Shown one piece after another: positions 12,342-48,952 of a stretch of 64,000 nt of DNA. The translations under genes and the position numbers were made by a program. Location of the stretch: assembly GCA_963791095.1 (NCBI GenBank), contig CAWBRE010000012.1, forward strand, positions 9,370 through 73,369, given 5' to 3'. Position 1 is the first letter of the stretch. Each line of letters opens with the position of its first letter. The notes under the pieces are model-generated. The model had not been told where the DNA came from and ran no database searches. It was given only the letters and a program-made list of their open reading frames with translations. Source of the DNA: an uncultured Solirubrobacterales bacterium. Its GTDB lineage: Bacteria; Actinomycetota; Thermoleophilia; Solirubrobacterales; 70-9.

Positions 12342-12411
12342 GGGCGGGCCGGGGTGACCCCTGAACGAACCTCCCCGCTGTTGTGAGAGAAGGGGTCACC
12401 CCGGCCCGCCC
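12342..12411. repeat. Family A hairpin element, copy 1 (inverted orientation): 21-bp perfect stem around a 28-nt core
   Basis: GGGCGGGCCGGGGTGACCCCT..AGGGGTCACCCCGGCCCGCCC. The loop is the reverse complement of the core seen at 13041 and 47378, with a few changes. It lies between convergent gene ends. Confidence 0.8.
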
Positions 12412-13022: not shown

Positions 13023-13087
13023 CCCTTGCGAAGGACCCGGGGGTGACCCTTCCCTCACGAACTGCGGGGAGGTTCGTCCAGGGTCAC
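13023..13087. repeat. Family A hairpin element, copy 2: 18-bp perfect stem around the 29-nt core TCCCTCACGAACTGCGGGGAGGTTCGTCC
   Basis: GGACCCGGGGGTGACCCT..AGGGTCACCCCCGGGTCC. The core is identical to the copy at 47378-47406. A partial duplicate of the left arm lies at 13006-13017. Confidence 0.85.
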
Positions 13088-13112
13088 CCCCGGGTCCCTC
13101 TCGACCGCGCGC

Positions 13113-44343: not shown

Positions 44344-44492
44344 CGCGCCTCAGCTCTCAGTGGAAGGAGTCGCCATCGACCCCAGCGTATTCCCTGGGCG
44401 CGCTCGCCGGACCCCTCGGGAGTTCCTCACCAGGAACTCCCCGCGAAGCGGGCCTGGAGAGGGACTCCCGAGGGGTCCCCCACCAGCCCGAC
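44344..44492 (-). promoter_or_regulatory. Structured 149-nt gcvT leader (three-way-junction-like; weak resemblance to a single glycine riboswitch aptamer)
   Basis: 13-bp long-range stem ACCCCTCGGGAGT/ACTCCCGAGGGGT enclosing two hairpins. Elements GGGGAG-hairpin-CCGAGGGG-hairpin-CAGG are ordered like a glycine aptamer, but the conserved GAAGGAGCAA core is not matched. Confidence 0.3.
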
Positions 44493-45883: not shown

Positions 45884-46441
45884 CTAATTGGCGGGAGGAA
45901 GTTCGTGATCTTCGCCCCCCACCGCCGGGTGGGTCGGCGCCGTCACGTCTACATAACTGAGCAACGTCACAGAAGGATCGGCCAGCACCTCCGCCGCCGA
46001 TTCCCACTTGCGCGCGACTTCGCGATCGTCGCCGAAGCGGATTTCGATCCCGGTGGCCGTCTCGAGGGCGACCCCGCTCTTGCCGTACTTGGCGCTCGCG
46101 ATGTAGCGGCGGATCGCGGCCGGAGCGGCGGCGATCACGTGCACCTCTTCGAGCACGTGGCCCTTCACCTGGTCGCCCTTCGGCCGTTTCTTCAGCGCCA
46201 GCACGACCAGGTGCTTCTGCTGCTTGCCGCCGCCGCCCTTGTTCGAGTCGGGGGCGGTGCGGGTGCCGAGGATCCTGCCGTCATCGCCGACCATGACCAC
46301 GGTCTTGCCCTCGCCGATCTGGGCCACCGGCGTCGTCGGCTGCGCCTCGGCGGTTGGGGTCGAGGAGCCGCGCAGGGCGAACCAGTAGACGGCCACGGCG
46401 GCGACCGCGACGACCGCGACGGCGATCAGCGCGCGCCTCAT
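45884..46441 (-). CDS. ftsQ: Short FtsQ/DivIB-like cell division protein
   Basis: MRRALIAVAVVAVAAVAVYWF (TM) plus a domain of about 150 aa. ATGA overlap with the murB stop. Assignment rests mainly on its position between murB and ftsZ. Confidence 0.55.
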   Translation of the reverse strand: MRRALIAVAVVAVAAVAVYWFALRGSSTPTAEAQPTTPVAQIGEGKTVVMVGDDGRILGTRTAPDSNKGGGGKQQKHLVVLALKKRPKGDQVKGHVLEEVHVIAAAPAAIRRYIASAKYGKSGVALETATGIEIRFGDDREVARKWESAAEVLADPSVTLLSYVDVTAPTHPAVGGEDHELPPAN

Positions 46442-47358
46442 GCGTCCTCCCAACCGGGGACGACGACGTCGCCCAGCACGTGCACCTCGGGCTCGAGCTC
46501 GACGCCGAACCGCTCCTTCACCCGGCGCCGCCCCTCGGCCATCAGCGCGAGCACGTCGGCGGTGGTCGCCTCGCCGGTGTTCTCGACGAAGTTCGCGTGC
46601 TTCTCGGAGAAGCGGGCGCCGCCGTGGGTGAGGCCGCGGCAGCCGGCCGCCTCCAGCAACTGCCCGGCAGAGCGGCCCTCGGCGCGCGCGTCCTCGGGGT
46701 TCTTGAAGGTGGAGCCGAAGGTCTTGATCCCGGAGGGCTGGGCCTCTTTGCGGCGGCCGCGCATCGAGGCGAGCGTGGCGCGCACCTCGTCGGGGTCGCT
46801 GGGCTCGAGCGCGAAGGAGGCGCGGGAGACCACTTCGCCCGCGGCCAGGTTGGAGTTGCGATAGGCGAAGCCGAAGGCGTCCGGGGTGCGCCGCTCGGTG
46901 CCGGCCGCGGTCGTCACCTCGACCCACTCCAGCACCTCGGCCAACTGCCCGCCGTAGGCGTTGGCGTTCATCCGTACCGCGCCACCGACGGTGCCGGGGA
47001 TGTTGACCCCGAACTCGAGCCCCGCCAGGCCCCAGCCCGGCGTCTTGCCGGCGACCGAGGGCAGCCGGGCGCCACCGCCGCAGCGCAGGTGCGTGCCATC
47101 GCGCTCGACCTCGGTCAACGCACCGTCCAACTTCATCGCCAGTCCTCGGAATCCGTCATCCGCTACCAGGAGGTTCGAGCCCGAGCCGACCACTCCTACC
47201 GGGACGGACGCCTTTTCTGCCCAGGCCAGCAGGGCGGCGAGGTCGTCTTGGGACGCAGGGCGGGCGAAGAAGTCGGCGGGGCCGCCGGTGCGGACCGTGG
47301 TGAGGCGGGCCAGGGGGTAGTCGCGCTCGACGCCGGGTGGGGGTTCGTTGTGGGAGGA
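46438..47358 (-). CDS. murB: UDP-N-acetylenolpyruvoylglucosamine reductase (C-terminal half of the fused 805-aa murC-murB ORF)
   Basis: ..YPLARLTTVRTGGPADFF..GSGSNLLVADDGFRG..GGAVRMNANAYGG..FKNP. No stop and no ATG separate it from murC. Confidence 0.85.
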   Translation of the reverse strand, partial: SSHNEPPPGVERDYPLARLTTVRTGGPADFFARPASQDDLAALLAWAEKASVPVGVVGSGSNLLVADDGFRGLAMKLDGALTEVERDGTHLRCGGGARLPSVAGKTPGWGLAGLEFGVNIPGTVGGAVRMNANAYGGQLAEVLEWVEVTTAAGTERRTPDAFGFAYRNSNLAAGEVVSRASFALEPSDPDEVRATLASMRGRRKEAQPSGIKTFGSTFKNPEDARAEGRSAGQLLEAAGCRGLTHGGARFSEKHANFVENTGEATTADVLALMAEGRRRVKERFGVELEPEVHVLGDVVVPGWEDA

Positions 47359-47425
47359 GGGGGACGAGGGGGACCCTTCCCTCACGAACTGCGGGGAGGT
47401 TCGTCCAGGGTCCCCCTCGTCCCCC
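47359..47425. repeat. Family A hairpin element, copy 3, forming the in-frame linker between murC and murB
   Basis: 19-bp perfect stem GGGGGACGAGGGGGACCCT/AGGGTCCCCCTCGTCCCCC around the identical 29-nt core. Translated as KGDEGDPGRTSPQFVREGSPSSP. Confidence 0.85.
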
Positions 47426-48855
47426 TTCACGGAAGCCTCGCCCGGGTTGGGGGATACCAGGGCCTCCCCCAGCTTGAAGATGTCTCCGGCGCCGATGGTG
47501 ACCAGGATGGAGCCCTCGGGAACGGATTCCAGGCGGCGCTTCAGGAACGCTTCGGCGCGGGCGGCGGTTGGGAGCCAGGCGACTGGTTTGCCCTTGCCTC
47601 GATCCGCGGCGGCTCGGGCTACGTCTAGGCCGCTGACGCCGGCCAGGGGGCCGATCGGCTCCTCGCGGGCGGGATAGACGTCGAGGACGGCGATCTCGTC
47701 GGCGAGGGCGAGGGCGGCGCCGAACTCGGCGGCGAAGACCTTGGTGCGCGAGTAGAGGTGGGGCTGGAAGACGGCGAGGAGGCGCGGCGGGGCCAGGCCG
47801 CGCAGGGCCGAGAGGGCGGCGCGGACCTCGGTCGGGTGGTGGGCGTAGTCGTCATATATGCGGACCCCCCCGCGCTCGCCCTTCACCTCAAGCCGGCGGC
47901 GGACGCCGCGGAAGTCGGCGAGCGCCGCGGCGGCGCGGTCGAGGTCGAACCCGGCGGCCTCGAGCGCCGCCAGCGCCGCGCGCGCGTTGAGCACGTTGTG
48001 AGCGCCGGGAACCGCGAGGTCGAGCGAGGCGGTCGGCGGCTTGGCGGCGGAGAACTCGGCGAGGGTCGGCGGAGCGTCCGGCGGAGCCACGGAGCCTCCG
48101 GTCGCGGCCACCGTCGGTCCGCCGACTAGCGCCTCGCGGACCTCCTCGACCGCGCCGCCCTCGCGGCTCGGGGCCGGCAGCACCGCCACGCGGGACTTGG
48201 CGGCGAAGCCGACGAAGGCCTCGATCAGCGGCTCGAGCGAGCCCCATTTCGAGTGGTGGTCCATCTCGACGTTGGTGATCACGGCGACCTCGGGGTCGAG
48301 GCGGAGGAAGCTGCCGTCGGACTCGTCGGCCTCGGCCACCACCCAGTCGCTCGCTCCCCAGCCTGCGTTGGCCGGGGCGCCGTCGGGACCGAGCCCGGGG
48401 ACCTCGCCGCCGACGAAGAAGGCCGGGTCCTCGCCCAGTCCGCGGAGGGCCCAGACCGCCATCGCGGTCGTCGTCGTCTTGCCGTGGGTGCCGGCGATCG
48501 CGATCAACCGCTTCTCCGCGCAGAGCTCGGCCAGCAGCTCGCCGCGGTGGATCACGGTGAGGCCGCGCTCATGGGCGAGGGCCAGCTCCGGGTTCTCGGC
48601 GGCGATCGCGGTCGAGACCACCACCTCCGCCCCCTCGGGCAGGTTGGCGGCGTCGTGGCCGATCGTCGGCTCGAGCCCCGCCGCCCGCAGACGCTCCATA
48701 TAAGAGGACTCGCTGCGGTCCGATCCGGTCACCTCGGCGCCGAGCCCGGCGCAGACCACCGCCAGCCCGCTCATCCCCGCCCCGCCGATGCCGATGAAGT
48801 GCAGCCGGCGCCCGCTCCAGTCCGTGCCCGTCACGCTTGGGCCCTGGCGCTGCAA
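47426..48855 (-). CDS. murC: UDP-N-acetylmuramate--L-alanine ligase (N-terminal half of the fused ORF)
   Basis: HFIGIGGAGMSGLA, IAGTHGKTTTTAM, DYAHHPTE, TIGAGDI. TTG 48855 or GTG about 48834 as start. Confidence 0.9.
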
Positions 48856-48862
48856 GGAGGTT

Positions 48863-48952
48863 GTAGACCTTGGTCGCCCACAGGGTTACCAAGCTCTACG
48901 ACCCCGGAGGGCTTCTGCCTTTTGTCGCCCACAGGGCGACAAAAGGCAGAAG
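48863..48952. repeat. Two tandem hairpins (family E) with different stems but the same loop motif CGCCCACAGGG, between murG and murC
   Basis: 48863-48899: 12-bp stem with 1 mismatch. 48912-48952: 18-19-bp perfect stem CTTCTGCCTTTTGTCGCC/GGCGACAAAAGGCAGAAG. Confidence 0.75.

Follow-up and report, generated by a model that had tools for sequence, protein, structure and literature searches.

Introduction

REPs have a conserved stem and a 5′ GTAG that is recognised by RAYT transposases, and they are not normally translated. Small inversions associated with hairpins, as well as quasi-palindrome mutation by template switching, have been described for chloroplast DNA and E. coli. The Rickettsia palindromic elements (RPEs) are dispersed palindromes that lie between genes and also in frame in unrelated genes, where they occupy structurally tolerant positions and contribute a stretch of peptide (PMC10969869). 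As for the enzymes concerned here, MurB/C of Verrucomicrobium spinosum has an N-terminal MurC and a C-terminal MurB joined by a linker of about 100 residues, and it complements murB and murC mutants of E. coli (PMC4803751). In a survey that excluded unidentified species, MurC-MurB made up about 11% of Mur chimeras and was found mainly in Verrucomicrobia (PMC10214165). Our literature search returned no paper on MurC-MurB fusions in Thermoleophilia, and none on REP-type repeats in Solirubrobacter or on the repeat family described below.

The window analysed here, that is, the whole stretch of 64,000 nucleotides, comes from an uncultured Solirubrobacterales bacterium, a soil actinobacterium, and contains a murC/murB junction at which a palindromic repeat lies within a continuous reading frame (Table 1). 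The best explanation, to which we assign a probability of roughly 0.65, is that a dispersed repeat located at an overlap of the murC stop and the murB start is a tolerated passenger, which is read through as the linker between MurC and MurB.

Table 1. Features of the window around the murC/murB junction and further copies of the repeat family (positions in the window; a dot marks features for which no strand is given).
Feature	Position	Strand	Remarks
805-codon MurC-MurB fusion ORF	46438..48855	-	TTG start, stop included; from the ORF list
MurC part	47458..48855	-	residues 1-466, end ..GAGDIFKLGEAL; Mur_ligase/_M/_C by Pfam
Extra 10-codon module SPNPGEASVK	47425..47454	-	resembles a diverged tandem copy of the preceding KLGEALV, as inferred from sequence
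Palindromic repeat element, 69 nt	47358..47426	.	translated as residues 478-499
Stem arm, 5′ side on the coding (-) strand	47407..47426	.	G-rich there; reads GDEGDP
Conserved 29-nt core	47378..47406	-	coding strand GGACGAACCTCCCCGCAGTTCGTGAGGGA; reads GRTSPQFVRE
Stem arm, 3′ side on the coding (-) strand	47358..47377	.	C-rich there; reads GSPSSP
MurB part	46438..47334	-	from about G508 (..PPGVERDYPLARLTTVRTGG..) to the stop; FAD_binding_4 528-656, MurB_C 690-793 (Pfam)
Junction peptides of the window allele			e.g. TSPQFVR, EGSPSSPSSHNEPPPGVER
Second family copy	12342..12411	.	intergenic, between two convergent ORFs
Third family copy	13030..13100	.	overlapping the 3′ end of the preceding ORF or immediately beyond it, before the next same-strand gene

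The MurC-MurB Reading Frame

The five Pfam domains of the ORF, the MurC set followed by the MurB set, share one frame, and Mur_ligase, Mur_ligase_M, and Mur_ligase_C together occupy residues 18-457 of the 805-aa product. With MurC at the N-terminus, MurB at the C-terminus, and no interruption between them, the ORF is by Pfam a Mur chimera. The initial annotation had described murC and murB as one 805-codon ORF with neither a stop codon nor an ATG at the junction, and the ORF list and the Pfam domains bear this out. When the window junction is read in frame, neither a stop nor an in-frame ATG is present in the stretch from GEAL to ERDYP (..ERDYPLARLTT). Start-type codons of this frame are limited near the junction to two GTGs, V476 and V491; a Shine-Dalgarno-like sequence is absent upstream of either, and the next in-frame start after V491 is codon 555, within the MurB fold. 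Because the junction has neither a stop nor a credible MurB start, MurB can be obtained only within the long polypeptide. The same two features of the window go against the other proposal of the initial annotation, in which the hairpin was a translational or processing signal between two cistrons.

In an AlphaFold2 model based on 34 homologues, both enzyme halves fold, with a mean pLDDT of 80 and values above 80 in most blocks of ten residues. The pLDDT falls below 50 at linker residues 470-500, and the element-encoded peptide is therefore predicted to be a disordered inter-domain linker. The linker of the window fusion comprises about 40-50 aa, half of which is translated genomic repeat. Very probably, the organism of the window makes a MurC-MurB fusion enzyme whose halves are bridged by the repeat, and the modelled protein would hold both activities within one polypeptide.

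Modules of the SPNPGEASVK type are found in some relatives only; there are two in L004, and the sequence in P0060 is KLGEALVDPKLDEALVK. Such additional modules, 9-10 codons long, lie directly 5′ of the element in the window, L004, L067, P0054, and P0060. Their variants (SPNPGEASVK; NSELGEASA-NSELEEAPVK; DPKLDEALVK) look like tandem duplications of the murC end KLGEALV. Since both module copies are on the same side of the element, the modules suggest slippage beside the hairpin rather than a target-site duplication.

Anatomy of the Junction Hairpin

The inverted repeat at the murC/murB junction has 20-nt arms that are 100% complementary with 29 nt between them, and it is translated in the coding frame as GDEGDPGRTSPQFVREGSPSSP. 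The initial annotation had placed the hairpin and its 29-nt core correctly, apart from the outermost base pair: the stem has 20 bp and the element 69 nt, instead of the 19 bp and 67 nt given there. Within the core, a smaller 6-bp hairpin (ACGAAC/GTTCGT) can be formed, and this inner helix is 100% paired in 11 orthologues. The arm pattern, which is expected 0.1 times by chance, was found twice, as the two arms of the junction hairpin. The RNA fold of the hairpin has an energy of −62.6 kcal/mol (z = −4.3), the stem contains G5 and C5 runs, and five of the six frames of the element are stop-free.

No Rfam family matched the window at gathering thresholds. A search by E-value returned for the element only generic miRNA-precursor hairpins at about 30 bits, compared to thresholds of 47-168, and these candidates were rejected; the element is not a described RNA family. 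It was also rejected as an intrinsic terminator, given that there is no terminator-like call and no U-tract, the 3′ flank being CCTCCTCCCACAAC.

Two other hairpins were observed in the window. Directly downstream of the ftsZ stop on the minus strand, positions 44409-44478 form a different long hairpin with 26-nt arms that are 92% complementary and an 18-nt loop containing GGAACTCCCCGC, which is faintly like the family core. A perfect 19-bp hairpin with a 3-nt loop (48912-48952; CTTCTGCCTTTTGTCGCCC / GGGCGACAAAAGGCAGAAG), unusually rich in AT for this genome, is found in the short stretch that separates murG from the beginning of the murC-murB ORF.

A Dispersed Repeat Family with a Conserved Loop and a Free Stem

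The junction hairpin can be recognised as a copy of a dispersed palindromic repeat family of Solirubrobacterales. Three copies occur in the window, the junction copy included, and each is flanked by a different stem; the recurrence of the 29-nt core with different stems indicates that the family is real. The core of the third copy (13051-13079) is identical to that of the junction and its stem differs, and the core of the second copy (12363-12390, GCTGTTGTGAG) departs from the junction core by a 1-nt deletion and three substitutions. The stems of both copies have 20-21 bp and are perfect or near-perfect, and both copies are intergenic, immediately behind the ends of genes. The second copy carries the 1-nt-deleted TTGTGAG variant of the core, the same variant that supplies the murC stop in relatives. 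The ORF upstream of the third copy appears by its sequence to be pentose-5-phosphate 3-epimerase-like.

Metagenome contigs were scanned with a 23-nt core pattern, which gave at least 120 matching stretches, and stem statistics were compiled for 124 non-redundant copies among the matches listed. Perfect pairing over 20 bp was found in 74 of these 124 copies and a single mismatch in 28; the mismatches are few and fall mostly at stem position 20. Among the listed copies, the modal perfect stem is exactly 20 bp long, as many as 44 distinct stem sequences occur in the perfect ones, and the 5′ arm is G-rich whichever strand is read. The loop-proximal half of their stem is semi-conserved (approximately GGKGACCCY), and the distal half is free. 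Two further candidate features were rejected. Wobble mismatches, a possible sign of selection at the RNA level, showed no clear G-T excess family-wide in the 124 listed copies, and a conserved flank motif of the CTCG type yielded at most 0.6 bit of information in a position-by-position count.

The gene context of the listed copies was assigned by a crude GC3-based gene caller. Tandem genes flank 28 copies, convergent genes 10, and divergent genes none, and a further 21 copies lie within ORFs; by these crude calls the distance from the upstream stop to the copy was mostly −45 to +50 nt. The usual home of the family is the first tens of bases after a stop codon. With respect to the upstream gene, the core was oriented in the opposite direction in 39 listed copies and in the same direction in 26, which amounts to no bias.

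Viral contigs gave no match to the core and thus no sign of a phage origin, and no copies beyond those at the junction were present in the 10-kb flanks of 80 genome murC-murB loci. In the metagenome Ga0153956, mosaic repeat clusters contain dozens of copies that are identical to one another and end up some 30-70 nt away from the contig ends (L087, L093, L097, L105, L116, L119, L123, L146, L152, and others), in the manner of high-copy repeats that break assemblies. These clusters also hold tandem GGCCACGCCTGCCCG units and the perfect palindrome CAGCTGTTCCTTATGCGCC..GGCGCATAAGGAACAGCTG, and their organisation resembles that of BIMEs. No mobilising gene, transposase, or RAYT was found, the candidate copy pair inspected being the inverted pair of L129 only; this pair was rejected as a transposase cassette, as it encloses a GNAT-like gene instead.

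In-Frame Copies in Other Genes

The element is also read in frame in other genes. By Pfam, such copies are found in an FO-synthase-like protein (Radical_SAM + CofH_C; element peptide GDPSLTNSGEVRPGSP), a MenD-like TPP enzyme (LPSRTAGRFVQG), a CopC-CopD protein (PWTNLPAVREG), and an FAD monooxygenase, and two more, in a DnaE-like polymerase and a GNAT-like protein, were identified by sequence only. Three of the four Pfam-checked copies are located between Pfam domains, and the remaining one, that of the FO-synthase-like protein (FbiC), falls inside the CofG half. All five open frames are used across these genes and the MurC-MurB junction. The element thus appears to sit at structurally tolerant positions, such as linkers and places between domains.

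Two copies occur in the GNAT-like acetyltransferase gene (L129:1332-2453, minus strand): one is in frame within an internal loop, and the other, at the 3′ end of the gene, is read in the one closed frame of the element and supplies the stop (..GTLNEPPRSS*).

Maintenance of the Stem and Inversion of the Loop

Covariation of the stem was evaluated in 11 orthologous junction copies, in which 99.6% of the cells are paired. In these copies, both partners have changed in 9 of the 19 outer stem pairs (32 cells), a single G-U and a single mismatch are present, and none of the shuffled or register-slid controls came near the observed covariation. Many of the swaps are transversions. Transversion pair swaps cannot pass via a wobble intermediate. 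In addition, the loop occurs in both orientations between the same arms, one in L001, L018, and L133 and the other in the rest. Because the paired changes lack intermediates, the loop flips, and the core has no orientation bias, it is most likely that the perfect pairing of the stem is maintained in the DNA itself, through template switching or conversion between the arms, which would also invert the loop. Stepwise RNA compensatory evolution would fit the pattern less well.

The same data bear on the question of whether the hairpin is a selected RNA structure in the mRNA of the dcw operon, with the fused or split state of the genes being secondary. Its roles could be those of an RNase III site, a stabiliser against 3′-to-5′ exonucleases, or a site of ribosome pausing that gives MurC time to fold ahead of MurB synthesis. 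RNase III recognises stems of about 20 bp, and the stem length is indeed tightly held near 20 bp, or about two helical turns. Moreover, pairing is kept among orthologues despite many substitutions, copies directly follow stop codons, as do hairpins that stabilise mRNAs or act as terminators, and the element persists at the junction across dozens of lineages. However, a sequence-specific RNA loop should be strand-specific, and therefore the missing orientation bias (39 against 26) and the presence of both orientations at this very junction count against such a role. The near absence of wobble intermediates together with the many transversions is unusual for RNA compensatory evolution, close relatives without the element keep a plain stop/start overlap, and there is no U-tract, no terminator-like call, and no Rfam family. 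Furthermore, cleavage inside the fused ORF would destroy the sole MurB message. On balance, we regard a selected RNA structure as unlikely, and prefer the reading of the element as a tolerated passenger. Against strict neutrality, a perfect 20-bp GC-rich stem in an essential ORF should have a cost, so that its persistence could reflect a function.

A more active element may also be envisaged. HUH endonucleases act on a conserved loop that is displayed on a variable stem. By analogy, the conserved loop could be the recognition or nicking site of an enzyme that acts in this way, with arms that are renewed by fold-back copying, and this self-renewing hairpin would home to gene 3′ ends and act there as a switch between fusion and fission. 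We hold this idea to be speculative and its truth doubtful. If it were true, the gain or loss of one base in the core, or the inversion of this loop, would toggle essential neighbours between a translationally coupled and a fused form, and the two forms might exist side by side in populations as standing variation.

The Junction in Relatives

The best protein matches of the window fusion are MAG proteins labelled Solirubrobacterales, and the MurC of relatives is 77-90% identical to that of the window. One of the matches, P0002 from a different JGI sample, is 93% identical and has the same linker in the same frame. In a genome comparison, the junctions of 79 species-level loci were classified by tblastn anchoring. 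In about 67 of them, murC and murB are separate genes that occupy different frames and share a short stop/start overlap, and about 12 are fused. The fused loci include L001, L002, L004, L010, and L076, the frame check placed L022 among the split ones, and L065 has an ordinary split junction without the element, GATGACTGA. Apparent frameshifts affect the last ~20 MurC residues (GPGHDRRRR...) in L007, P0039, P0043, and P0057, while the frame stays open into MurB; possibly caused by homopolymer indels in long-read assemblies, such cases should be left out of the tally of clean fusions.

A protein comparison covered the best 120 clusters. Fusion through the element was found in 34 of them (28 with the core forward, 5 with the core flipped, and P0018), whereas in about 57 the element is present and the ORF stops. 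About 37% of the element-bearing clusters among the best 120 are fused. In 21 clusters the stop comes 6-8 residues into the core-encoded peptide, those directly read ending in ..PQL*, and in 27 it comes about 10 codons past this peptide. About 14 of the best 120 clusters have an empty, split junction (EALLD[GDH]*), and 7 fused ones lack the element, namely six distant ones and P0046. Relatives thus present every kind of junction: without the element and with overlapping stop and start; with the element, either split or fused; and with the loop inverted. According to the initial annotation, ordinary stop/start pairs without the element in relatives would speak against the fusion. The comparison gave a mixed picture: such pairs do exist (L065, P0058), side by side with junctions that combine the element with a stop and others that combine it with a fusion, and the fusion of the window stands.

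The difference between the filled states can be small. The core variant TTCGTGAG is the fused form, and TTGTGAG is the form with the GTGA stop/start overlap. Fused alleles read CAG TTC GTG AGx, whereas L204 reads CAG TTG TGA, in which the TGA ends murC and the GTG overlapping it is the called start of murB. From this comparison, a single base of the repeat separates the fused enzyme from one common translationally coupled pair.

Given that one base decides between fused and split and that the element has G5 and C5 runs, the continuous ORF could be thought to result from an assembly or sequencing error, e.g., a homopolymer indel in G5 or C5, with two genes being truly present. The related long-read MAGs with apparent frameshifts near the MurC C-terminus (L007, P0039, P0043, P0057) may show the kind of error in question. 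Yet the independent JGI sample of P0002 gave the same linker and frame at 93% identity, about 34 of the best 120 clusters, from many samples, are fused via the element, the fused contigs L004 and L010 bear names (k141/k127) suggesting short-read assemblers, and the window offers a separate MurB no start codon that is preceded by a ribosome-binding site. An artefact is therefore very improbable. The indel problem that the initial annotation had named for the window is unlikely at the junction for the same reasons, and its proposal of a fusion bridged by the repeat is upheld by the shared linker of P0002 and the ~34 clusters.

Evidence on the order of events comes from the MurC tree, a neighbour-joining tree of one protein that has poor resolution inside the element clade. 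A single clade carries the element in this tree, and the empty EALLD[GDH]* alleles are scattered within it. Inside the clade, every empty junction is split, and every fused allele but P0046 runs through the element. The empty P0058 and the filled P0049 have MurC proteins that are 97.6% identical, and their 4.4-kb loci show 91-100% identity per 100-nt window outside two indel hot spots. One hot spot is the junction, with a 97-nt indel and a diverged stretch of ~100 nt next to it, and the second lies midway along MurC and carries another palindromic in-frame element. A target-site duplication and clean insertion boundaries were looked for in these near-identical empty and filled strains and not found. 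Because there is no clean boundary and no duplication and the ~100 nt beside the indel have diverged, allele exchange by recombination would fit better than a fresh insertion.

The second palindromic element is unrelated to the first and lies in frame in a variable loop in the middle region of MurC of relatives (L201:2220-2266). It also occurs in P0058, P0063, P0075, P0082, P0094, P0109, and P0110 and is absent from the window MurC. Its arms are GACCGTTCGCTGTTCCTCCGGC / GCCGAACAAGGAGCGAACGGTC, it reads approximately RVRSSPxxxxESANAP in one to three tandem copies, and its presence varies between strains that are otherwise 91-100% identical per 100-nt window.

Element-free fusions are known in other Solirubrobacterales lineages (L003, L005, L008, L009, L033, P0032-P0037), and P0046 is such a fusion close to the element clade, at ~80% identity. 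They count against regarding the direction of events as settled, and they would agree with a different order, in which murC and murB were fused in the clade ancestor, the repeat entered the linker later, as RPEs enter tolerant loops, and the splits are secondary. Also in keeping with this order, the remaining Pfam-checked in-frame copies are found in proteins that existed already, for the most part between their domains. Against it, the empty alleles of the clade are all split and have a short tail and a stop/start overlap as in the outgroups, so that the ancestral-looking state is the split one. Moreover, only ~37% of the element-bearing clusters among the best 120 are fused, and the post-stop position of the family matches an insertion at the end of a separate murC. 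We consider it rather improbable that the fusion came first.

Proposed Origin and Significance of the Fusion

In the explanation that we favour, with the repeat as a passenger, a copy would have come to adjoin the overlap of the murC stop and the murB start in the clade ancestor, or would have done so repeatedly. The five stop-free frames would let the element be read through, and small indels would decide the outcome: either murC stops in or just after the element and murB restarts at the overlapping GTGA or ATGA, or murC and murB become one ORF. In the window allele, the continuous frame would lead to a MurC-MurB polypeptide of ~85 kDa as the only route to MurB. The element would then encode a part of a disordered, Gly/Pro/Ser-rich inter-domain linker and would be a tolerated passenger rather than a signal. 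The anatomy, the repeat family, the spread of junction states among relatives, the covariation, and the predicted disorder are shown by the data; the direction of these events, the upkeep of the stem at the level of DNA, and the bifunctional nature of the protein are inferred.

MurC-MurB chimeras are not confined to Verrucomicrobia and arise repeatedly in Solirubrobacterales from overlapping stop/start junctions, which makes this order a natural experiment on whether the fusion of consecutive peptidoglycan enzymes matters. A free-living, high-GC lineage of actinobacteria also tolerates an in-frame palindromic repeat in several enzymes, at least one of which is essential, a behaviour that is best known from Rickettsia. 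The proposed maintenance of the palindrome at the DNA level could be studied with population data. In practical terms, annotation pipelines call such loci fused or split on one base, and catalogues of fusions in MAGs need care.

Comparison with Known Systems

The initial annotation gave the Verrucomicrobium fusion the opposite domain order; it has the same order as that of the window (PMC4803751). The verrucomicrobial MurB/C and the window fusion are alike in forming one polypeptide, MurC then MurB, with a non-conserved linker and in lying in the dcw region. They differ in the linker, which has ~100 aa in Verrucomicrobia and ~40-50 aa in Solirubrobacterales, half of the latter being translated repeat, and in that the nearest relatives are split here and the fusion toggles within one actinobacterial order. 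Given these split neighbours and the emergence of the fused state within Solirubrobacterales, the comparison points to an origin independent of the verrucomicrobial fusion. Some of the Solirubrobacterales fusions have already been annotated as bifunctional by JGI.

In behaviour, the family is like the RPEs, being dispersed and palindromic and occurring between genes as well as in frame in unrelated genes at tolerant sites; no sequence relationship is claimed. The element is shorter (~69 nt compared to ~100-150 bp), its peptide varies through the use of five frames and both orientations, and its stem is hypervariable with only the loop conserved. Whereas the RPE host has a reduced intracellular genome, the element is hosted by a free-living, high-GC actinobacterial order. 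The likeness to the REPs and BIMEs of Proteobacteria lies in short GC-rich hairpins just past stop codons, between tandem or convergent genes, and in the mosaic clusters of one metagenome. In contrast to REPs, the stem varies (44 perfect stems), the loop is conserved, there is no 5′ GTAG, and the element is translated. A classification as a MITE was rejected, because the terminal arms vary between copies and there is neither a target-site duplication nor a conserved flank. Compared to REPs and MITEs, conservation is reversed: the loop is fixed, and the stem of ~20 bp is free but always perfect.

The loop in both orientations and arms that remain complementary through paired changes without intermediates recall small inversions and template switching. 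These are general mutational processes, whereas here they would act on a conserved-core repeat inside an essential coding region. The repeat is set apart from REPs and RPEs by four features: its loop is conserved, its stem varies freely yet is always perfect, five of its frames are translated, and one base switches between fusion and coupling.
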